Shown here: positions 1 through 11,081 of the stretch, piece after piece
Layout of the letters: every line of letters starts with the position of its first letter
Position numbering within the stretch: position 1 is the stretch's first letter
DNA from: a virus
Lineage: Duplodnaviria > Heunggongvirae > Uroviricota > Caudoviricetes
DNA: 11,081 bases
Reading direction: 5' to 3' (one strand)
Virus record (IMG/VR): IMGVR_UViG_2534681697_000014
Coordinates: 1-11,081 of that record
Notes under the pieces: model-generated
Databases searched by the model: none
Seen by the model: the letters and a program-made list of their open reading frames with translations, nothing else
What the model was told of the DNA's origin: nothing
Translations under genes and position numbers: made by a program

Positions 1-24
1 CGCCTAACCAATAAGGCGCCGGGA

Positions 25-603
25 GTGTCGGGCGCTTCACGCAACGGTACGCGCCGCGCCATTACGCCGGAACATTACCAGCAGGTGATGGAGAAAGCCC
101 GCGCTGAGGATGCGGGGCTGGCTGCGGCGCTGGAGATCGCGCGACTGATGGGGTTACGCTCGCAGGAAACGGTACAGAGTTCACTGTCGCTGAAAACGTG
201 GCTGAAAGCCATTGAGCGCGGGGAAAACCGGCTGAAAGTGATGTTTGGCACCAAAGGTGGGCGTCCCCGCCATACGACAGCTCTGGATACTGGCGCAGTC
301 AGGAAAGCCGTTGAAAAAGCGTTAATTGTAGCAGAACAACACAATGGCAGGCTGATCGACAAGCCTGATCTCAAAATGGCGCTGGAGAGCTGGCACAAAC
401 AGGTCATTAAGGTGGGGCTGAAGGGGGAATTTTCCCCTCACTCCCTGCGCTATGCCTGGGCGCAGGATGCGATCCGCCATTATCTGGCGCAGGGATTCAG
501 CGAAAAGGAGTCACTGGCGCTGACGGCGACGGATCTGGGCCACGGCGACGGTCGTGGGCGCTGGGTGAAACAGGTGTACGGCTACCGCTGGAAGGAGGAA
601 TGA
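25..603 (+). CDS. Small tyrosine site-specific recombinase, FimB/FimE size class (192 aa from GTG at 25; frame is open to position 1, so the start may lie upstream)
   Basis: Translation shows tyrosine-recombinase catalytic boxes: LEIARLMGLRSQE (box I Arg), TKGGRPRH (Lys hairpin), HSLRYAWA (HxLR), LGHGDGRGRWVKQVY (C-terminal Tyr). N-terminus RRAITPEHYQQVMEKA resembles FimE KRRYLTGKEVQAMMQA as recalled from memory. Possible RBS AAGG 8 nt before GTG. Confidence 0.6.
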   Translation: MSGASRNGTRRAITPEHYQQVMEKARAEDAGLAAALEIARLMGLRSQETVQSSLSLKTWLKAIERGENRLKVMFGTKGGRPRHTTALDTGAVRKAVEKALIVAEQHNGRLIDKPDLKMALESWHKQVIKVGLKGEFSPHSLRYAWAQDAIRHYLAQGFSEKESLALTATDLGHGDGRGRWVKQVYGYRWKEE

Positions 604-789
604 CGGATTTCATGAATGGCGCAAAATAGTACGTTACTGCGTAACGACAGCGATTTATCGTACCCTCTGTACCGGATCTGGCGCAGGGGCGAGCGGGTTT
701 GTATTGTGAAAATATCGTTACAGCATGACGAATAAATATCAACAGATCAGATTTCCCTGCTTCACCAATATAGTTTGCCGGAATATTAT

Positions 790-811
790 AGTGATTACCC
801 CTGTAATCACT
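790..811. repeat. 22-bp palindrome AGTGATTAC-CCCT-GTAATCACT (GTGATT-N8-AATCAC)
   Basis: Read directly; 9-bp perfectly complementary arms around a 4-nt centre. Confidence 0.7.
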
Positions 812-1454
812 CGAAATGCTCCCTGGTAATAACAGGTGTTTCAATCGTTTTTACCGATACTACAGGGTTGGGAAAATTTTAAAATGTAAATTCACCGGGG
901 CTCACATTAATTCTGGCACAGGGTTATATCTGAATAATTCTCTCTGTGTTTTTCCGTATCCTGTTATATATATTGTATGGTCTCAGGATGCCTCATGATT
1001 TTATAAAAATGCTGCGACGGTTTTTGATATCATAACCTGCTGCATATAAATTAACAATTTTCGCTGCTTCATGTTATTTTTTTGCACTCTGTGACCGTTA
1101 TTGTGTGGTGAAATGCAATCTGGTGCAGGCAGTCATGGTGTATTTCCGAATGAACTGGTTACGCCAGAAAGGGAAAGGGTTATAAAGGTTAAGGGAGCGA
1201 TAAGGGTAACAGCGCCTGACCGGAAAGGGCCGAAAACCAAGGGCAAGAAACTGGCGCAGTCCTGAATGGATAGAGCGGCGGGACGCTGGCGCAGATAGCA
1301 GATTATCCGGGACGGGGGCAGATTATTTTGTCTTTATATAGCTGGTGCAGTGATGATATGTATCAGGAAGGATTATACGGTATTATAAGGCGCAATTTTG
1401 GGGATGTATTAATTGGTGATTCCGTGGAAACATCGATTATTGATAGCTTTTCAG

Positions 1455-1484
1455 CTTCCGTGATTAACATGTTAATCACGGAAG
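1455..1484. repeat. 30-bp perfect palindrome CTTCCGTGATTAACA|TGTTAATCACGGAAG (GTGATT-N8-AATCAC) in repeat copy A
   Basis: Read directly; the two halves are exact reverse complements. Confidence 0.8.
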
Positions 1485-1673
1485 GTGGCTGTCTATTGAA
1501 AACAGATGAATTGATAGGTTTTCACCTGAATTATTGGAAACCAAATAATTTCAGACTTATATCTATCTGGTATCTGATGTAGTTCTTACAGGCTTCAGAG
1601 TATAGGGTCAGGAGATATTCTGGAGTATTAATTGGCATTTCCGTGAAAATATCACGTATTGATAGCTTTTCAT

Positions 1674-1703
1674 CTTCTGTGATTTGCGGGCAAATCACAG
1701 AAG
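1674..1703. repeat. 30-bp near-perfect palindrome CTTCTGTGATTTGC-GG-GCAAATCACAGAAG (GTGATT-N8-AATCAC) in repeat copy B
   Basis: Read directly; differs from the copy-A palindrome by symmetric (compensatory) substitutions in both arms and a different, still self-complementary, centre. Confidence 0.8.
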
Positions 1704-1890
1704 GTAGTTATCTATCAATAATATATTTATTAATAGGCAATCGCCTGAAAATACTCTACTTGAATAATTTCTGGTACTTACCTATTAATAAGTAGTTCAT
1801 TGATTGGTTTTCACCCAAAATTATTTGGGGCCAAATATTTATAGATGTTTTCCGATTGATAATAACAAAAAAACGGCAATATCTATCAAC

Positions 1891-1928
1891 AAAAAAAAGC
1901 AGATCCCGGTCAATCAGGATCTGCTTTT
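1891..1928. terminator. Bidirectional intrinsic terminator downstream of the P4-type integrase
   Basis: A8 run (1891-1898), 8-bp stem GCAGATCC/GGATCTGC with 10-nt loop (1899-1924), then TTTT (1925-1928); U-tract follows the stem on either strand. About 30 bp past the integrase stop (1959). Confidence 0.6.
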
Positions 1929-1958
1929 CCAGTTTTAATGATTTACGCTATTTCTGAT

Positions 1959-3221
1959 TCAGGCTGCCTTATGCTGCCGCGCATAAATGTACGGCGCGAC
2001 ATACCCCTCGCGGCACACATCCAGATAATCCGACCACCACTGCATCATGGCCTTTCTGGCCTCCAGATGCTCTGCTTTATGCACATATGCCGCCCGCACG
2101 CTGTTGCGCTCCTGGTGGCTCATTTGCCGCTCCACCGTATCGCGTGACCACAGGTCCGACTCCACCAGGGCGCTACAGGCCATTGCCCTGAGTCCATGCC
2201 CACAGACTTCAGTTTTCGTATCATACCCCATCAGACGCAGCGCCCGGTTGGTGGTGTTTTCACTCATTGGCTTGTACGGATTATGGTCGCCGGGAAACAC
2301 CAGATCCAGATGGCCGGAAAGCTCCTGTATCTGTTTCAGAATGGCAATCGCCTGGCGGGAGAGCGGCACGATATGCGGGGTACGCATTTTTGCGCCACGC
2401 CCCGAAAACCGTACTTTATCAATTGCCTCGCGGGTGGCGGGAATGGTCCAGATTTTGTGCCTGAAATCAATCTCGCTCCAGTGGGCGAAACGCAGTTCGC
2501 TGGAACGGATGAACAGATGCAGCGTCAGCACCACCGCCAGCCGGGTTAACTCCCGGCCCTGCTGATAGTCACCGATGCGGCCAAGCAGTTCAGGCAACCG
2601 CTCCAGCGGTAAAGCGGGATAGTGATTCTTTACGGGTGAAGCGACAACGCCATCCAGATGCTGCGCCGGATTGCTTTCGGTAAGCCCCTGCTGAACGGCA
2701 TAGCGCATGATGTTGCTGAGTTGCTGCCGGGTTCGGGACGCGACTTCCAGAAAGCCTTTATCCTCAATAACCCGCAACAAAGCAGTGAAATCCTGCGTTT
2801 TAAGCGTGGCAACGGGCAGATGACCAATCGCCGGGAAGATATGGTTTTCCATACTGGCGAGAATACGGGCGGCATACTCAGCCGACCATTTTTTGTTGGT
2901 TTTGTGCCAGGCCAGCGCCACCGCCTTAAAGCACTTTTCAGGGGAGCAGGCTGCTTTCTCTGCCATGCGCTGCTGCGCCGGGTTGATATTCTGCGCCAGT
3001 AACTTACGGATACCGTCGCGCTGCTGCCTGGCTTCTGCCAGTGAGACCAGCGGATATGCGCCAAGACTGACTCTGGATTCTTTTCCGTTGAAACGATATT
3101 TGAGATACCAGATGCGTGAACCGCTCGGATTGACGAGCAGATACAGACCGTGAGAGCCGGAGAGTTTTACCGGACGGGAAGAGGGTTTTAACTTGCGGAT
3201 TTTAGAATCGTTTAAAGACAT
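1959..3221 (-). CDS. P4-type (tRNA-associated) tyrosine integrase, 420 aa
   Basis: Track ORF 1959..3323 carries a 34-codon in-frame extension; family-typical N-terminus MSLNDSKIRKLKP starts at ATG 3219-3221. Catalytic-domain signatures are present (RSSELR, HGLRAMA, RAAYVHKAEH). Lies 161 bp from the 3' end of tRNA-Asn on the same strand. Confidence 0.9.
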   Translation of the reverse strand: MSLNDSKIRKLKPSSRPVKLSGSHGLYLLVNPSGSRIWYLKYRFNGKESRVSLGAYPLVSLAEARQQRDGIRKLLAQNINPAQQRMAEKAACSPEKCFKAVALAWHKTNKKWSAEYAARILASMENHIFPAIGHLPVATLKTQDFTALLRVIEDKGFLEVASRTRQQLSNIMRYAVQQGLTESNPAQHLDGVVASPVKNHYPALPLERLPELLGRIGDYQQGRELTRLAVVLTLHLFIRSSELRFAHWSEIDFRHKIWTIPATREAIDKVRFSGRGAKMRTPHIVPLSRQAIAILKQIQELSGHLDLVFPGDHNPYKPMSENTTNRALRLMGYDTKTEVCGHGLRAMACSALVESDLWSRDTVERQMSHQERNSVRAAYVHKAEHLEARKAMMQWWSDYLDVCREGYVAPYIYARQHKAA

Positions 3222-3382
3222 TTGAGGGCCACTCCAGAATCGAACCAAACTGCCCCCAGATCTGACCACCAAATTATCCCGATGCGGAGAGAAAACTAGA
3301 TACGCACCGGGAAGGATTTTCACGCTAACTTACTGAATCGTAAACAAATAGAAACGTACAGATAAGCATGAAAACTTGAATT

Positions 3383-3458
3383 TGGCTCCTCTGACTGGAC
3401 TCGAACCAGTGACATACGGATTAACAGTCCGCCGTTCTACCGACTGAACTACAGAGGA
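3383..3458 (-). tRNA. asnT: tRNA-Asn (anticodon GUU), 76 nt
   Basis: Reverse complement reads TCCTCTGTAGTTCAGTCGGTAGAACGGCGGACTGTTAATCCGTATGTCACTGGTTCGAGTCCAGTCAGAGGAGCCA, matching E. coli tRNA-Asn as recalled, with CUGUUAA anticodon loop and encoded CCA. The asnT name (rather than another asn copy) is from position next to mtfA. Confidence 0.95.
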
Positions 3459-3558
3459 ATCGTGTGAACGGGGCGCATATTACTTAGCGGTACCTTGTCT
3501 GTCAACACTAAATTTCATAAGTCATTTCAATTGGTTAATTAATCTGCAAAGTTGTTAA

Positions 3559-4356
3559 TTAATGAACATTCGTCGCCGAAAACGAGTCTGTATCATTAGC
3601 GTGATGCAGTCTCTGCAAAGGATCTTGTTGATAAAATTGGCAGAAACGTTGCCACAATGAAGGGAAACGAGGAGCAAAAAGTTCTGGGGCGCTAAAGAAA
3701 TATTCAGAAAGTACGGCAAAACATTCAGCAGGATCGCTGGCAGCATAAGCATCAATGCTCGCCGCATTCTCGCCAACTAATTCGATTTCTTCCTGAATGT
3801 TGTTCATTGCAGCATGAAGATCGTGTTCCCAGCCAGCAACCTCACGCAACGGAATAAAGGGAACTTCGCTGGCGCGATCGCCGTTACGGGTGTCCAGCTT
3901 ATGAGCGACTTCATGAATAATCAGGTTAAAACCAGAAGCATCAAAAGAATCTTGTATATCCAACCAGTTCAAAACGATAGGCCCTTGCTGCCAGCTCTGA
4001 CCTGACTGAACAATACGTTGGTTATGCACCAGACCGATATCGTCTTCCCATTCATCATCGACCACAAATGGCGCAGGATAAATTAAGACTTCATGAAAAC
4101 CATCCAGCCATTCCAGTCCTAACTCCAGAACGGGTAGGCAAAATAGAAGTGCTATCCGGCAGCTTCTTAATGAATCCAGTTCAAAGCTCTGTAAAGGAAC
4201 AAGCCGCTTTTGCTGTAAAAAACGTTCGGCAAGAGTGACTAATTTGCTTTGTTCCTGTTCCGTCAGACACGTTAAAAGGGGGATCGATAGTGCTTCCTGC
4301 CAGGGAAGGGCAGTTTGATGTGCTGATTCTTGTACTTTCCAGGGCCACTTAATCAT
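3559..4356 (-). CDS. mtfA: MtfA (Mlc titration factor A / YeeI), zinc-dependent peptidase, 265 aa
   Basis: Translation from ATG 4354-4356 begins [23 protein letters not shown] and contains the HEVAHKLD metalloprotease motif; it matches E. coli MtfA as recalled. The track ORF start at 4395 is a 13-codon upstream extension. Confidence 0.9.
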
Positions 4357-4449
4357 CGTTTTGCTCGCAAACTCGTCACTTGAACAAAATTGCACGGACA
4401 GGGACTGTTAAAATGCCAAATTTCTTGGCATCATGGCAACCATCTGAAC

Positions 4450-4539
4450 GGAGAGATGCCGGAGCGGCTGAACGGACCGGTCTCGAAAACCGGAGTGGGG
4501 GCAACTCCACCGGGGGTTCAAATCCCCCTCTCTCCGCCA
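4450..4539 (+). tRNA. serU: tRNA-Ser (anticodon CGA), 90 nt with long variable arm
   Basis: GGAGAGATGCCGGAGCGGCTGAACGGACCGGTCTCGAAAACCGG...GGTTCAAATCCCCCTCTCTCCGCCA; anticodon loop CUCGAAA; encoded CCA. Confidence 0.95.
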
Positions 4540-4566
4540 AAATTCAATCACTTATACATCATTAAG

Positions 4567-5604
4567 TCAGTGACAAAAATCACACTTGGAATTACTTGGA
4601 ATATTTTCAGGTAACGGGACATCAAGTGTCGGTGAAACTTTAACCTTCCTGTCATAGATTAGCACTTGCCCCTCGGTTTTGTGACCAGAGAAAAGTTGCT
4701 TATCCCGACTGCTTCCTTCATAGTCTGAAATTCCTTTCGCCTTCAGATCATGAAAGGTGAAGTCGGTTAAAATACCTGAAATTTTGCCTGCGCGATTTCT
4801 TGCTTCTACCCACATTTCGTTAAAGCCTTTGTACATATATCGGTTGCCGTATTGATTGCTGATTACATAGGCGGATGTTGGTAACTGTTTTGCTTTTTCG
4901 ATCGCCGCCTGTAATCGTGGACTCCATGCTTTTATCTGTTTTTTTCCTGTTTTCCCTTGCTGGATAAAGATCCCGTCGTTTCCAATCTGCTCCCATTTCA
5001 GCGATAACACATCGGAAACCCTCGCTGCACACAGATAGGCAATTTCCATTGCGATAAAAACAGGAAGAGGTGCAACGCTTAATACTGCCTGGTATTCTTT
5101 GTCGGTTACATATCGTTCGCGGTTTTTGGCCTTGAATTTACTTACACCTGCACATGGGTTAGCCTTCACGTACCCTCGCTCATACCCCCAACTGTAAACG
5201 CGGGACATACTGCTTTTTTCATGGTTGGCTTGCGTTTTACTCTGTTCCCCTCTCTTGTCCATGTATCGACGGATGTGTTCTGGTTTTATGGAATCTGCCG
5301 GCACCTTACCGAATACGGCAAGCAACTTTTTTTGATGTTGCAGATAATCTTTTTGTGTTCTTGGACTGAGGTCACTGTAATAGGCGCTGGCGAGGAATTT
5401 TTCCCACAAGCGACCGAATGTCATTGCACGATCGCGATTATTTACAGTTTCCTCATACTTTTTCCATAAAGCAGCTAAACCATCCTTGATGGCGGTTAGT
5501 GTTACAGATTCTCTGGATGTTGGTTTCCATACATAACTATATTTATTTGGGTATACATTTGGAGGTAATTTTTCGTGTTCAGGATTTTTCCTTCGTCTTC
5601 CCAT
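4567..5604 (-). CDS. Lambda-family prophage integrase (tyrosine recombinase), 345 aa
   Basis: 345-aa ORF with a C-terminal catalytic region (FHDLKAKGISD...GHKTEGQVLIYDRK, Tyr nucleophile); start codon overlaps the stop of the upstream xis-like gene at 5604. Confidence 0.85.
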   Translation of the reverse strand: MGRRRKNPEHEKLPPNVYPNKYSYVWKPTSRESVTLTAIKDGLAALWKKYEETVNNRDRAMTFGRLWEKFLASAYYSDLSPRTQKDYLQHQKKLLAVFGKVPADSIKPEHIRRYMDKRGEQSKTQANHEKSSMSRVYSWGYERGYVKANPCAGVSKFKAKNRERYVTDKEYQAVLSVAPLPVFIAMEIAYLCAARVSDVLSLKWEQIGNDGIFIQQGKTGKKQIKAWSPRLQAAIEKAKQLPTSAYVISNQYGNRYMYKGFNEMWVEARNRAGKISGILTDFTFHDLKAKGISDYEGSSRDKQLFSGHKTEGQVLIYDRKVKVSPTLDVPLPENIPSNSKCDFCH

Positions 5605-5807
5605 CAGATCGCACCAAAATTCGGCTCTACCTCGCGTGGTGGTAAAGTTTTATTGCAGGTAAATAGATCCCGGCTGACAATCGGTTTGCCACTACGATTG
5701 GTATAGAACGGAAGCCCGTTTTCCATTAACCATTTTCGCTGGTGGCTTGCATATTTGCAGCCCGTTAATATTAGCAATTCATCTTCGGTTAAAAATAAGC
5801 TGCTCAT
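5604..5807 (-). CDS. Excisionase-like small protein (DUF4224-like), 67 aa
   Basis: Sits immediately upstream of int and is translationally coupled to it (stop/start share base 5604); LTEDELLILTG...WLMENGLPF resembles the DUF4224 family found at the xis position. Family assignment is from memory. Confidence 0.6.
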   Translation of the reverse strand: MSSLFLTEDELLILTGCKYASHQRKWLMENGLPFYTNRSGKPIVSRDLFTCNKTLPPREVEPNFGAI

Positions 5808-5865
5808 AGCTATATCTCATAACCGCCGCTAACTATATACGGTTAGCGGCAATTAGGGTTGAACA

Positions 5866-6210
5866 TTAAAAATCAGCCTGACTCGGGATCAGTTTTTGCC
5901 AGATAGCTGAAACGTATTTTGCTTGGTAACGAGCGTCATCAAGTGCATTATGGCGCTCACCTTCGAATGGAATAGCCGTTCTGGCATCGAAGTCTATGGC
6001 TTTCCCCAGCTCAACGATTGTGCGTACATCGCGATCGTTGTAGTAACGCCACGGGCAGGGGATCCCCTGCCGTTCGTATGAACGGCGCAAAATCGTGTTG
6101 TCGAAGTTGGCTCCATTTCCCCAGACCTGAACAAAAAATTCACCGGAGTTTTCGTCGATAAATTCCCGCAATTGTAACAGTGCATCATCTAACGGGATTT
6201 CATCGGTCAT
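5866..6210 (-). CDS. C-terminal two-thirds of a DEDDh (DnaQ-like) 3'-5' exonuclease domain, 114 aa, separated from its N-terminal part by an in-frame TGA
   Basis: Contains Exo II (WGNGANFD) and Exo III (HNALDDARYQAKY) motifs; ATG at 6208-6210 lies 3 codons after, and in the same frame as, the TGA (6220-6222) that ends the upstream 695-aa ORF. Confidence 0.7.
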   Translation of the reverse strand: MTDEIPLDDALLQLREFIDENSGEFFVQVWGNGANFDNTILRRSYERQGIPCPWRYYNDRDVRTIVELGKAIDFDARTAIPFEGERHNALDDARYQAKYVSAIWQKLIPSQADF

Positions 6211-6219
6211 AATGGCAGA

Positions 6220-8307
6220 TCACGCTTCGCGTGATTGCTTAAGCCACCATTTAATGGTGTCCCGATCAATGACTCCGCCAGCAGTTTCCAGATCGATAGT
6301 CTTACTAAATTCGGGTCCCATATCTCCGGTTTGCGGATCGAAAAATATTGCATCTATTGAGATGATCGGGGCATCAGGATTTTTTCCCATGGTTTCAAGG
6401 TCGATCATTAGATGGTCACACGTCCTGCTGGTGGATGTGATTTCGTGATGACCATTCACCGTAATTAAGGGATCTGCCGTCTCGCCAGTTTTACTATCGC
6501 TGGCGTGGTCCTGAGCGCTGCCAGCATTCTCCTTGTGTGGATGTTCAGCGCCTTCCATTTCCTCCGGATCATTTTCCTGAACTTCAACCTGATTCTCTTC
6601 ATCGAATGTTTTCTGGTATGTTGCGTCGTCCATCACCGCGCCACAATCAGGGCAGTTGCCGCCACCGCTCTGACCGCAGGCGGTGCAGACTTTTTCCGGT
6701 TCCTGTTGCGCTACTGGTTCGGATTGTTTCGTTTCTGGCTCGTTTTGTAACGCATTTGGGCTGTTTTGTTCCGCTTTTTGGTCGTTCCGTTCCGATTCAT
6801 GCTGGTTCTGGTTCACAGAATCGCGAGTCTGGATCCCCTTGACCCATTTCGGATCATTAGGGTCGCTAATCCCCTCAACAAATTCACCACGCGATACAGC
6901 AAGTAACTTATCGGCGTCAGGCTGGCTGATATTGGCTGCCTGCATAATTTTGTTTACTTCGTCAGCGGTGACTTTTACTTGGTTAGCGGAACTCACCTGC
7001 GACTGAGCATCCAGCGACTGCGCGTTCTGGCAATGTTCAGTTGTATCCGGTTCCATTGTTTCAGTTGTTGCCTGTTCACCTGCCATTGCGTCAGATGGTT
7101 GTGGTTTTTCTTCTTCTGTTTCACGCTCAGTAACCACCTCGCGGTTAATTTCTTCCAGGATATCTTTTTCCGGCGTATGCCGGGCAGCTGTGAGAGTTTC
7201 CTTGCTGGGGTTCTCGTGATCAGTTTCCGTCAAATAGGCGTTGATATACCCCTGAAGGCGTCCCGGGTAGTGATAAAATTCAGGGTGTGCGCTTCGGATA
7301 AGTGCAAAAATAGCGGCGCGGGAATAGTCCAGAATACCCGGGGTTGCACGAAGTGCTGCGGACCATTCTTTGAACGGACTTTCTTTTTTCAGGACTACTT
7401 CTTTTGCGCGACGATAAACGCTGCCCGGAATTTCATAAATATTAAAATCCATCGGAAGTGTGGCTGCTGCAATCTCCACATCCAGTGTGTCGAGGGTGTG
7501 TACTAAATTCGGATTGCGATCGGTTTTGTTCCCACCGCCAGCATTAGCACCGGAAGCCGTGCGGGTGATGCGTGAAACACGATTTCCTTTCATCCACTCT
7601 TTTGTCAGCAGACCCCGATCAGTGTAGTCAGCGTCCAGGTATGCTTCGAAAAAAGCAGTTATTAGTCCCAGGTCTGAATTACCAGGATTAGGGAAAACTT
7701 TGTCAGTGTCACGAACCAGTTTGTGGAGGTCGCGAATCTCCAGCGAGTCGAGCAGACTGGTTTTATGCGAAATAGCCAGGGCAGTAACAGCCGGTAGTTC
7801 TTCAGCCCGTGCAATGTGTAATGCCTGGAGTTCGTCGCGTGAAACGTGCGTTACTGGTTTTTCGCTGCCGTGTTGAGCAAGCCAACGAATGGGCAGTTCC
7901 TGACCGGAGACAGGTAGAAGCATGCTCTCCTCAATCTCAGTCATGTCTTCGCCGTTGATGTTGGTATTATCAGTGCTGGCTGATTTGTCCTGAACAGAGG
8001 GGGAAGGGCCGATAAATGTCATTGTGATGCCATCTTTCCCGCCTTTTTCATAGCGGTTGCAGAATTCAGTATCAAACACGCCTTCTGGCGGAAGGTCGTC
8101 AACAACGGGCAAATTGACGCGGACGGGTTTTTTAAAGTCGTCTTCATCATAATCGTTGTCATCCATTGCGGTAATGCAGCGGGAGATTGCAACAGATAAT
8201 TTTTTTGCTGTAGTCCAGTAAAAACCACCTTTAATTCCTAGGCGTTTTCTTACTTTGTCATTTTTTGCTTCGCAATATAGTGCAAATTCTTCTTTATCAG
8301 TGCTCAT
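6220..8307 (-). CDS. Large acidic RecE-N-terminal-like protein (695 aa) whose last 60 residues form the N-terminal part (Exo I motif) of the DEDDh exonuclease domain
   Basis: Long ORF with ATG at 8305-8307; zinc-ribbon [15 protein letters not shown]; acidic low-complexity stretches; C-terminal [25 protein letters not shown] carries the D-x-E Exo I motif. Resemblance to the Rac RecE N-terminal region is from memory only. Confidence 0.75.
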
Positions 8308-8400
8308 TATTGATAAACCTCATCACAGATTTAAGGGTGAACAAATCTCTGCCATTGCTGACATATAAGAATGAAACTGGATATTTATTACGGTGCTGTT

Positions 8401-8592
8401 TTAAAATCCTGCCGGGATTTCGTTATTATCCTGGTGAATAACTTTATCGACCGGATAACAGTTGCCTGGAATTTTCTGTTCGGTTGCTGCTGCCATACAT
8501 TCCTGCATTGTTCTGTGAACACTGACTGCAATATCAACTGGCTCTCCGGAAACAAGAAAAACCGTCAGAATAAGTGCAAATACTGGATTCAT
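8401..8592 (-). CDS. Small hypothetical prophage protein (63 aa) with hydrophobic N-terminus
   Basis: ATG at 8590-8592 overlaps the TGA of the upstream gene (ATGA coupling). Begins MNPVFALILTVFLVSG, a signal-peptide or membrane-anchor-like segment. The longer track ORF (start 8646) is probably an upstream extension. Confidence 0.5.
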   Translation of the reverse strand: MNPVFALILTVFLVSGEPVDIAVSVHRTMQECMAAATEQKIPGNCYPVDKVIHQDNNEIPAGF

Positions 8593-8777
8593 TGTGCACA
8601 TCCTTTTGGCATCAGACGTAAACGGGCCAGCATTGAAACAATGCATACTTTATTTAATAACTCCCGTTCGTGTTTTCTTTTGTTAATGGCCTCTTCAGTA
8701 AATACAGGATTACTGATAGTGACACCAATTTCAAAACAACCTTCAGACGTATTAACGTTTGGTAATAACGTTTTCAT
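8589..8777 (-). CDS. Small hypothetical Cys-containing prophage protein (62 aa)
   Basis: ATG at 8775-8777 preceded by GAGGG at 7-nt spacing; MKTLLPNVNTSEGCFEIGV...CIVSMLARLRLMPKGCAQ. The 97-aa track ORF starting at 8882 is probably an N-terminal over-extension. Confidence 0.5.
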   Translation of the reverse strand: MKTLLPNVNTSEGCFEIGVTISNPVFTEEAINKRKHERELLNKVCIVSMLARLRLMPKGCAQ

Positions 8778-9345
8778 TATCGCGCCCTCAACAATGAGTT
8801 TTGTGATGCGGTGCCTGGTGTCTCCAGGTGACGTTAACCAGTTAACAATTAACGCCGGATACAGAGAATCCACCCATAACACTGTTTTTGGTTTTAACTG
8901 TTCCGCGTGCGCTTAGCCGCATTCACCGCATCACAAAATTCACTTTAAAAAGGGCGGCAGAGCAGTCACGGAGTAAAACTGATACCGCCAAACGTCACCA
9001 GAAAATTGATAACAGAGGGCGTTGCAGCGGGGTTGTCACTTAAGCGTATGGTCAACCTGACAACCCGGTGTCCTCAACGGGGGAAGGAATAATCCCGCCA
9101 TACTTACCGCCGCGCCATTTCGCGGATTGCCACAACCGGAAGCGCACGGTCGACGAAAATTTAACGACAGGCTATCTATGAACCAGCTACCTCGCCGTGC
9201 GCTTTCGCGTTATGGTCTGACTTTTCAGGGAAATATCCTTTCAGTAAACTGTCAGTGCCGGATGCTCACCCGTGTCCGGCGCACGCACTCCACCTCACCC
9301 GTGGAGAACTCCTTAATTACTAACCTTAGCTTTGTTGATTAGCTA

Positions 9346-9564
9346 CTAACGCGGGTATGTAATCATTCTGGCAATGCTTAATGCCGCTGCTTTTTCCAGA
9401 TTGGTGATATCCTGCTCCAGAGCGGACAGATTTTCAGCCTGCTTAGCCCTGGCTTCATTAGCCCATTTCAGATCCTGCGCTGCATTAATTTTCTGGCGCA
9501 TCCACTCATAAAGTTCATCATCGGTATAGTCTGGCGCGATGATGACGGGTTCTCGTTTCTGCAC
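9346..9564 (-). CDS. Hypothetical small prophage protein (72 aa, predicted helical/coiled-coil), GTG start
   Basis: GTG at 9562-9564 preceded by GAGGAA; charged, helix-favouring sequence (ANEARAKQAENLSALEQDITNLEKAAALS). Confidence 0.5.
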   Translation of the reverse strand: MQKREPVIIAPDYTDDELYEWMRQKINAAQDLKWANEARAKQAENLSALEQDITNLEKAAALSIARMITYPR

Positions 9565-9593
9565 GCTGATTCCTCGCGGTGCTGTTTCGCTTA

Positions 9594-9722
9594 TCAGCCG
9601 TTAGATTTTGCCGAACTGGAAAGCGCCTGTTTAAATTCGCTGAAGCTGAGAGCTTCTTCGCCTTCGGCAAGGCCTTCGAAGTATTCTTCGTAAGCCTTTT
9701 CCATGATTGTGTCGAAATCCAT
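9594..9722 (-). CDS. Small acidic hypothetical protein (42 aa), not in the ORF track
   Basis: My translation of the minus strand: MDFDTIMEKAYEEYFEGLAEGEEALSFSEFKQALSSSAKSNG. ATG at 9720-9722 sits 2 nt after the TGA of the upstream 51-aa ORF, with GGTGGG just upstream. Confidence 0.4.
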   Translation of the reverse strand: MDFDTIMEKAYEEYFEGLAEGEEALSFSEFKQALSSSAKSNG

Positions 9723-9723
9723 A

Positions 9724-9879
9724 TCACCCACCTGAATTTCTTTCCAGCCAGCGACGCGCTCCAGATTCGGTTTTAAACGTTTTGCTTTTGGTATACGTCA
9801 TTGCGGTGAAGGTGCCGTCCTGGTTGGGAAACACGCCGTACACCAGAGATTCGTTGTTGCCAAGATCGATAGTATCCAT
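9724..9879 (-). CDS. Small hypothetical prophage protein (51 aa)
   Basis: MDTIDLGNNESLVYGVFPNQDGTFTAMTYTKSKTFKTESGARRWLERNSGG; ATG at 9877-9879 preceded by GAGGT at 4-nt spacing. The 92-aa track ORF (to 10002) extends this frame into the IS66 end and is probably artefactual. Confidence 0.45.
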   Translation of the reverse strand: MDTIDLGNNESLVYGVFPNQDGTFTAMTYTKSKTFKTESGARRWLERNSGG

Positions 9880-10023
9880 GCTGACCTCATTTCCCCTTAA
9901 CGCCGGGGTAGCGGAACAAAAACCTGCTGCATAGTTATTAAGTAAGCGCCCCATCAGCGACGTCTTGTGAAAATTGTCCTGTCTGGCAACAATCGCGCCC
10001 ATCTATATTGATGGACACGAACG

Positions 10024-10698
10024 ATGAATTCCCAGACAACAAAAGATATTCCCTGCTTCCGTTCTTATTTGCCTGATGCCCTGCGTTTAAGATTTGAAGA
10101 TAAACTGACCATCCGGGCCATCGCTCAGCGTCTGGGTCTCAGTCATTCCACAATACATACGCTTTTTCAGCGATTTCTTGCATCCGGTATCGCATGGCCA
10201 TTGCCCGATTCAGTTTCATTCGCTCAACTTGACGCCATCCTTTATGCCAACAGAAAGAAGGAATTAACAGAGCCTCAAATCAGAGAAGGCTCATGGCGAA
10301 AAGAACGGCGAACCAGCTATAGCCGTGAATTTAAGGTCCGTCTGGCTAAGCAGGCGTTACAGCCTGGGGCTGTTGTTGCCCGGATCGCCAGAGAACACGA
10401 TATCAATGATAACCTGCTGTTTAAATGGAAAAGCCAGTACGAGGACGGATTACTGAGCGATGATGACATACAGGAATGCATGCCTGTCCCGGTGGCACTG
10501 ACTGATACGCCGGAGCCGACCAGACCAGTTACAAATCCCTTCTGGCGTAACAAGCATGATGAGCGCCCTGAGGGGGCTCCCGGAAACGTCCCACGGTGCG
10601 AGCTGCATCTTAAATCAGGTGTGGTAAAACTGTTTGACCCTCTCACTCCGGAACTGTTACGGGCGCTAATCCGCGAAATGAAAGGGGGTATCCGATGA
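10024..10698 (+). CDS. tnpA: IS66-family accessory protein TnpA (orf1), 224 aa as called
   Basis: HTH region RTSYSREFKVRLAKQALQPGAVVARIAREHDINDNLLFKWKSQY typical of IS66/IS3 orfA proteins; stop overlaps tnpB start (ATGA at 10695-10698). Longer than the roughly 135 aa I expect for IS66 TnpA, so the true start is uncertain. Confidence 0.65.
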   Translation: MNSQTTKDIPCFRSYLPDALRLRFEDKLTIRAIAQRLGLSHSTIHTLFQRFLASGIAWPLPDSVSFAQLDAILYANRKKELTEPQIREGSWRKERRTSYSREFKVRLAKQALQPGAVVARIAREHDINDNLLFKWKSQYEDGLLSDDDIQECMPVPVALTDTPEPTRPVTNPFWRNKHDERPEGAPGNVPRCELHLKSGVVKLFDPLTPELLRALIREMKGGIR

Positions 10699-11042
10699 TA
10701 ACGCTGCCGACCGGTACCAAAATCTGGATCATCGCTGGCATCACAGATATGCGTTGTGGCTTCAATGGCCTGGCTTCGAAGGTGCAGAACACGCTGAAAG
10801 ATGACCCGTTCTCCGGGCATATCTTCGTCTTCCGGGGCCGCAGTGGCAAAATGGTGAAAATACTGTGGGCCGATCGTGACGGGTTATGCCTGTTCGCCAA
10901 ACGCCTGGAACGGGGCCGCTTCGTCTGGCCGGTGACCCGGGAAGGGAAAGTGCACCTGACGCCAGCTCAGTTATCCATGCTACTGGAGGGGATCGCGTGG
11001 CAACATCCCAAACGGACAGAACGGCCTGGCATCCGGATATAA
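10695..11042 (+). CDS. tnpB: IS66-family accessory protein TnpB (orf2), 115 aa
   Basis: MITLPTGTKIWIIAGITDMRCGFNGLA...KILWADRDGLCLFAKRLE is the characteristic IS66 Orf2 sequence and length; AGGGGG RBS 8 nt upstream. Confidence 0.9.
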   Translation: MITLPTGTKIWIIAGITDMRCGFNGLASKVQNTLKDDPFSGHIFVFRGRSGKMVKILWADRDGLCLFAKRLERGRFVWPVTREGKVHLTPAQLSMLLEGIAWQHPKRTERPGIRI

Positions 11043-11068
11043 CCCGTGATAAAACAAGGGAATGAACA

Positions 11069-11081
11069 ATGAACTCCCCGA
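11069..11081 (+). CDS. tnpC: Probable 5' end of the IS66-family transposase TnpC (first 4 codons only)
   Basis: ATG at 11069 with AAGGGA 7 nt upstream, 26 bp after the tnpB stop; position fits the third IS66 ORF. Too short to verify. Confidence 0.3.

Follow-up and report, generated by a model that had tools for sequence, protein, structure and literature searches.

What became of a prophage exonuclease gene whose reading frame is complete except for one in-frame stop codon, and how did that stop arise? The question is raised by an 11,081-nucleotide (nt) stretch of DNA from a tailed-phage record (Caudoviricetes; IMG/VR record IMGVR_UViG_2534681697_000014, positions 1 to 11,081; hereafter the window), in which a prophage of Shigella boydii ATCC 9905 carries a gene for a DEDDh exonuclease interrupted by TGA. 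An earlier reading made from the letters alone (the sequence-only reading) had left three options: a recent nonsense mutation in a decaying prophage, a sequencing error, or a gene expressed by readthrough or by reinitiation downstream of the stop. We think it probable that a lineage-specific nonsense mutation, produced in one step by a template switch, has turned the gene into a non-functional pseudogene. Two points are new: a likely mutational mechanism, namely a quasi-palindrome template switch during replication, and a second probable lesion, G652D.

The minus-strand frame running from 8307 to 5866 is 2442 nt long, a multiple of three, and comprises 813 codons counting the internal stop. 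It contains one internal stop only, the TGA (opal) at 6220-6222, which is codon 696. On re-reading, the minus strand proved to be exactly as the sequence-only reading had given it: AAG CAA TCA CGC GAA GCG TGA TCT GCC ATT ATG ACC GAT GAA. The two open reading frames (ORFs) on either side of the TGA are in the same frame, and the ATG of the second, at 6210, follows the stop by three sense codons (9 nt), also as had been read. The features of the gene are as follows.

5866-8307, minus strand: the whole disrupted prophage gene, which joins a RecE-like N-terminal region to a DEDDh 3'-5' exonuclease domain.
6223-8307, minus strand (8307 to 6220 in the ORF list): ORF1, 695 amino acids (aa), EFW55075.1, ending KQSREA; the Exonuc_VIII N-terminal domain and the opening third of the exonuclease domain, with Exo I.
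6220-6222, minus strand: the internal opal stop TGA at codon 696, ancestrally CAA (Gln), with C>T at 6222 and A>G at 6221.
6219-6235, minus strand: a perfect 7-bp inverted repeat with a GAA loop, ATCACGC-GAA-GCGTGAT, read directly in the sequence; it contains the GCGAAGC mini-hairpin motif.
5866-6210, minus strand: ORF2, 114 aa plus stop codon, starting MTDE; the final two thirds of the exonuclease domain, with Exo II and Exo III.
6385-6408, minus strand: the Exo I motif MIDLETMG (D636, E638), aligning to IDFETMG of the solved relative 8kel_A.
6352-6354, minus strand: codon 652, GAT (Asp), the site of G652D, with G>A at 6353.
6100-6123, minus strand: the Exo II motif WGNGANFD (D736), placed by the motif and by alignment to 8kel_A.
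5926-5952, minus strand: the Exo III motif HNALDDARY (H786, D791), where the Pfam match reaches the end of the profile.

When the reconstructed protein was searched against Pfam with the stop masked, residues 632-803 matched PF16473 (Rv2179c-like 3'-5' exoribonuclease) over profile positions 2-177 of 177 with 222.4 bits (E 4.5e-66), the gathering cutoff being 27 bits. Searched separately, ORF1 scored 81.6 bits over profile positions 2-68 and ORF2 scored 126.4 bits over positions 77-177; ORF2 also matched phrog_8783 over positions 1-114 of 114. All five DEDDh residues are present (D636, E638, D736, H786 and D791) and are divided between the two ORFs, in agreement with the sequence-only reading, which had placed Exo I ahead of the stop, Exo II and Exo III behind it, and one domain across two abutting ORFs. 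The domain is not encoded as an uninterrupted polypeptide: the TGA separates Exo I from Exo II and falls in the conserved WW..QS.EA segment. That one exonuclease domain is spread over two abutting ORFs is a fact of the sequence and not a chance pattern. Among solved structures, the closest relative is the 227-aa 'Exodeoxyribonuclease' (PDB entries 8KEL and 8KEN; E 1.3e-7), and the alignment of the C-terminal domain to its chain 8kel_A, which we take to be T4 DexA, spans Exo I and Exo II. The accession 8KEL appears in a paper on T4 DexA (PMC12153337). Further upstream, PF06630, the enterobacterial Exonuc_VIII N-terminal domain, was found at residues 57-189, and residues 1-616 matched positions 1-603 of the 877-position NCBIfam model NF007259 (RecE) with 945 bits, below the cutoff of 1269 bits for RecE membership.

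We asked what occupies codon 696 elsewhere. The gene family is common in E. coli, with a match in 4,745 of 5,426 complete genomes and a near-full-length match in 1,245. The closest intact homolog, WP_139496770.1 ('exonuclease', 813 aa; strain SCU-105; locus L001), is at the same serU/mtfA site, with the same gene order (dicB-ydfD-exo-DUF4224-int-tRNA-Ser-mtfA) and 99.8% identity at the DNA level. Its codon 696 is CAA (Gln), as it is in phage vB_EcoS-640R1, E. ruysiae, E. albertii and a mis-binned metagenome-assembled genome; the intact homologs in vB_EcoS-640R1 and other phages are called 'exodeoxyribonuclease VIII'. An unbiased sample of 120 IMG/VR viral contigs, retrieved with a pattern that left 17 bases around codon 696 free, had CAA in 111 cases, CAG in nine and a stop in none, and no stop was seen at this codon in the three species-representative genomes. 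A TGA-containing 61-mer centred on the stop had no exact match among E. coli complete genomes (3,961 matching records). The 695-aa product EFW55075.1 forms a singleton cluster among ~15 billion proteins and occurs on two contigs, AERN01000058.1 (the window itself, a draft assembly) and CP026875.1 (a complete chromosome). The sequence-only reading had predicted Gln, encoded by CAA or CAG, in homologs, and this was borne out by the 99.8%-identical copy as well as by all 120 viral contigs. A conserved two-ORF arrangement, which the same reading had considered as an alternative to a lesion, was rejected by the 61-mer, viral-contig and species-representative surveys. Judged by these comparisons, the split is a private lesion; it is neither a conserved arrangement nor a site of recoding. 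The first of the three options, a recent nonsense mutation in a decaying prophage, is favored by the private TGA, the Gln of the homologs and the eroded setting described below.

The gene in the window differs from the closest intact copy by five substitutions. Two change Gly to Asp (G560D and G652D), one is synonymous, and the other two are adjacent, turning CAA into TGA through a tandem CA>TG change in codon 696; intact copies thus have Gly 560, Gly 652 and Gln 696 where the window has Asp, Asp and TGA. The chance that five random substitutions in 2442 nt include any adjacent pair is 0.008. The ancestral sequence at this place is a quasi-palindrome, ATCACGC-GAA-GCGCAAT, with two central mismatches between its arms; besides the intact copy L001, it is carried by three further species-level records and by 104 of the 120 viral contigs. 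In the window it has become the perfect palindrome ATCACGC-GAA-GCGTGAT: both changed bases are the exact complements of the opposite arm, and the stem is now a perfect 7 bp. The predicted energy of the single-strand DNA hairpin goes from -2.7 kcal/mol for the ancestral sequence to -8.7 kcal/mol for the window, and none of 200 shuffled sequences folded as well. Only 72 of the 21,969 tandem double substitutions in the gene (0.33%) give a perfect hairpin, defined as a perfect stem of at least 7 bp with a loop of 3-8 nt. The GCGAAGC core is present on the coding strand only, and GCGNAGC has been described as an 'extraordinarily stable' DNA mini-hairpin motif (PMC13037366). We also noted that CA>TG creates a GATC (Dam methylation) site at 6218-6221 on the minus strand, across the stop and the following TC, which is probably incidental.

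Template switching at quasi-palindromes, a well-established process in E. coli, makes the repeat perfect or more perfect: the growing strand folds onto itself, is extended using its own sequence as template, and then goes back to the original template (PMC7202029). A tandem change in which both bases complement the opposite arm is the signature of such an event, and on this basis the TGA likely arose in one step. During synthesis of the coding strand, the nascent 3' end, ...ATCACGCGAAGCG, would have folded back on its own GCGAAGC mini-hairpin. The folded-back end, ...CGCGAAGCG, would then have been extended by T, G, A and T, copied from A, C, T and A of the 5' arm of the nascent strand itself and not from the true template. 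Re-annealing could have proceeded through the two terminal bases, AT, which match the true template, with the net effect that GCG-CAAT became GCG-TGAT and the repeat was made perfect. Mutations of this type are reportedly known from the work of Ripley in 1982 and, in E. coli, from the thyA hotspot and the lacZ quasi-palindrome reporters of the Lovett laboratory. They are expected to occur within a single replication event and to be stimulated by loss of ExoI/ExoVII or by AZT or 5-azaC. The window resembles the described cases in that an imperfect repeat has become perfect and each changed base complements the opposite arm (PMC7202029); compared with the reporters, the event is here deduced from natural sequence comparison alone.

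Several points weigh against this account. The 0.33% figure was calculated only after the palindrome had been spotted, and the loss of function that the account includes is a deduction from the sequence. The natural variation of the 17-mer in the 120 viral contigs is entirely synonymous and at third positions, and none of it improves the palindrome; it therefore provides no independent evidence of a mutational hotspot. Finally, a TAA allele exists at exactly codon 696 in a different type of prophage, at the ompW site, in three Japanese E. coli genomes (WP4-S17-ESBL-08, NR329 and KGu016) and one metagenome contig, where PGAP annotates it as an 'internal stop', and this allele is a possible intermediate.

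The best-surviving alternative is accordingly that two independent point mutations occurred in sequence, CAA>TAA>TGA or CAA>CGA>TGA, with the completion of the palindrome a coincidence. The first route could include a TAA acquired from another prophage by short-patch recombination, in which case a conversion patch of <147 bp would have been followed by A>G. Each step would be a common transition, and the second hit would be neutral once the gene was dead. We nevertheless consider this history rather unlikely. The gene has only three other substitutions in 2442 nt, the probability of a second hit at the neighbouring base is ~1e-3, and the chance of completing the palindrome exactly is ~0.003. 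The prophages with the TAA allele have a different integrase and share with the window only the 3' 1.1 kb of the gene, at 95.5% identity, whereas at 6313 and 6166, the closest informative sites, the window matches the haplotype of the intact copy L001. The TGA and the TAA are thus independent unless the conversion patch was as short as stated above. The records searched contained neither a CGA allele nor a TAA allele on the serU background.

The TAA allele also bears on whether codon 696 is prone to such events. Like the TGA, it is a nonsense change that lengthens the hairpin stem; it differs in being a single C>T, which corrects the inner mismatch, and in belonging to another prophage with its own integrase and insertion site. 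The three TAA copies are mutually identical and therefore represent one event. TAA would fit a fold-back with one templated base, but it is also simply a C>T transition. A second stop at codon 696 hints weakly at a hotspot; with roughly 10% of the sampled gene copies disrupted somewhere (about 14 of 99 have shortened reading frames), however, the coincidence is not compelling, and we set it aside as a statistical argument. The mirror-image correction of the left arm (TCA CGC to TTG CGC) had no exact match in the records searched, nor did these contain CGA or TCG, single changes that would likewise improve the palindrome. A TCA>TTA change (Ser>Leu) in the left arm was found in three loci, L021-L023 (E. 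coli 042 and relatives, in an rspB-site prophage; position 2519 of each locus). It increases the complementarity of the arms by mending only the outer mismatch, an outcome not predicted by a simple fold-back, and is most likely a plain C>T transition. We therefore offer only tentatively, as a doubtful extension of the one-step template switch, the idea that the quasi-palindrome at codon 696 is a template-switch hotspot that has repeatedly and independently given rise to stops, TGA here and TAA at the ompW site.

The consequence of the TGA for the enzyme is probably severe. Of the DEDDh active site, the ORF1 product retains Exo I alone, and ORF2 holds Exo II and Exo III. With neither product having the complete set, activity would need rare readthrough or non-covalent reassembly of the pieces. 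The upstream part also carries G652D. Gly652 is invariant in all 104 in-frame homologs (PIISIGAIFFD), and the position aligned with it in T4 DexA, in the second strand, is also taken by a small residue (Ala); the lineage-specific Asp of the window is therefore probably a second damaging change. With the domain split ahead of Exo II and G652D in the part before the split, the enzyme is predicted to be non-functional. Both of the lineage-specific Gly>Asp changes on the minus strand, G652D (6352-6354) and G560D (6628-6630, in a Cys-rich linker), are G>A.

These same observations bear on the possibility that the arrangement is functional, through UGA readthrough, selenocysteine insertion, or reinitiation at the nearby ATG with the pieces reassembling. 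The frame is preserved, the five catalytic residues are intact across the two ORFs, the ATG is close to the stop, and UGA is the leakiest stop codon in E. coli, all of which could be cited in its favor. The base after the stop, however, is U, and UGA-U is not a leaky context. For reinitiation, nothing resembling a Shine-Dalgarno sequence lies 5-10 nt ahead of the ORF2 ATG, and in the predicted RNA a stable hairpin takes in the stop and the bases immediately before the ATG; no promoter-like or terminator-like site was seen near the stop. Selenocysteine is opposed by the homologs, which have Gln and not Cys at codon 696, and no Rfam family, SECIS (selenocysteine insertion sequence) included, reached its gathering score in the gene, a search that undescribed signals would escape. 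Finally, Gln is present in every sampled homolog, the TGA allele is confined to one lineage, and ORF1 has the G652D change at an invariant glycine. We consider a functional arrangement highly improbable.

A sequencing or assembly error in an intact gene has a negligible likelihood and is excluded because, although the window comes from the draft assembly AERN01000058.1, the separate complete-genome assembly CP026875.1 carries an identical 2442-nt gene, TGA included, while differing from the draft elsewhere (11 mismatches and a ~100 bp indel over the shared 8.3 kb), and because a two-base substitution is untypical of any sequencing platform; this disposes of the second of the three options.

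One annotation pattern could be mistaken for a common split. The exact 114-aa product of ORF2 is listed on 159 contigs. When ten of these places were inspected, CP026875.1 carried the TGA and the other nine had an intact long frame, runs of N, or a frame leaving the stored sequence. The occurrence on 159 contigs is an annotation phenomenon and not biology, and we dropped it as a sign of a common split. In loci L009, L011 and L013 (4001-4345), for example, the 813-codon frame is intact upstream, yet only the 114-aa gene is listed. The 114-aa tail is also filed as a stand-alone '3'-5' exoribonuclease' in phrog_8783 and in a UniRef entry with 122 members, and the stand-alone listing looks like a propagated annotation artefact. 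In phage vB_EcoM-606R7 (locus L004, 1501-3944), the homolog is annotated as two 'exodeoxyribonuclease VIII' coding sequences, 1501-2421 and 2577-3944; this homolog is 2 nt longer than the gene in the window, which implies a separate disruption at another place in the gene.

Compared with known systems, the protein combines parts of two. It resembles RecE (exodeoxyribonuclease VIII of the Rac prophage) in the ~600 N-terminal residues (NF007259, PF06630) and in the position of its gene next to xis/int, and differs in that RecE has its own C-terminal 5'-3' nuclease domain where the gene in the window has the DEDDh 3'-5' exonuclease domain instead. On the DexA side the homology seen is at the level of the domain only. 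EcD, an E. coli DexA homolog ('HREX'), selectively digests DNA modified with 5-hydroxymethylcytosine and protects against T4 (PMC12153337), and the domain in the window has Ala where DexA has the tetramer-forming D90, as reported for EcD (PMC12153337). Identity with EcD was considered and rejected: the EcD cloning primers encode MIDTET... and a different C-terminus (PMC12153337), and EcD appears to be a separate stand-alone gene, in contrast to the 813-aa fusion with a RecE-like N-terminus. No PADLOC model matched the protein of the window, and a role in defence may be taken as only a lead for the intact gene.

The surroundings of the gene are those of a degraded lambdoid (dicB/dicF/ydfD-type) prophage at tRNA-Ser(CGA) (4450-4539), adjoining mtfA. 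Shigella genomes are full of pseudogenes and of prophages eroded by insertion sequences (IS). The other features of the prophage are as follows.

4567-5604: integrase, first in the prophage gene order.
5604-5807: DUF4224, between the integrase and the exonuclease gene.
8401-8646, minus strand: ydfD/DUF1482, part of the dicBF module.
8589-8882, minus strand: dicB; the listed ORF has an N-terminal extension, and the Pfam DicB match covers the last 62 aa.
8952-9003, minus strand: the DicF small RNA (Rfam, 76.7 bits).
~9941-11081, plus strand: an IS66-family element, with a helix-turn-helix ORF at 10024-10698 and a TnpB-like ORF at 10695-11042.

The dicBF module (8401-9003) is typical, and beyond DicF the prophage continues with ydfC, ydfB and ydfA. 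Synteny with the intact comparator stops at 9941, inside ydfA, and the IS66-family element, which interrupts the prophage, follows. In CP026875.1 the far side of this element abuts holin and TolA-like genes, which indicates that the immunity and replication (early) region is gone. The prophage is a remnant, as expected in Shigella.

Further changes were noted in and around the integrases. Compared with its E. coli counterparts, the integrase of the prophage is short of one copy of a 13-bp direct repeat (GAAAATATTCCAG / GAAAATATTCCAA) at 4567-4620 on the minus strand. This slippage-type deletion causes a frameshift that exchanges the last 5 residues, so that the end ...ENIPGKYSK becomes ...ENIPSNSKCDFCH, each followed by a stop codon (345 aa versus 341 aa). 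A second, P4-type integrase (1959-3323, minus strand) adjoins tRNA-Asn (3383-3458), and two integrative elements thus flank mtfA. In CP026875.1 the P4-type integrase is in pieces of 225 aa and 142 aa owing to a ~100 bp deletion that the window does not have.

For biology at large the disrupted gene carries little weight, being an ordinary pseudogene in a decaying prophage. The intact gene, present in most E. coli genomes and related to T4 DexA, has no demonstrated function, and its loss here may be neutral decay. The 114-aa tail calls for caution in annotation, as it is called a '3'-5' exoribonuclease' even where the 813-codon frame is intact. The locus likely offers a clear case from nature in which a template switch at a quasi-palindrome accounts for a multi-base mutation. 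Mutations of this kind resemble two independent single-nucleotide polymorphisms and can mislead analyses of mutation rate or selection. Should the hotspot idea be true, codon 696 would be a case of templated nonsense mutagenesis at the scale of a natural population, in a gene that itself encodes a 3'-5' exonuclease.

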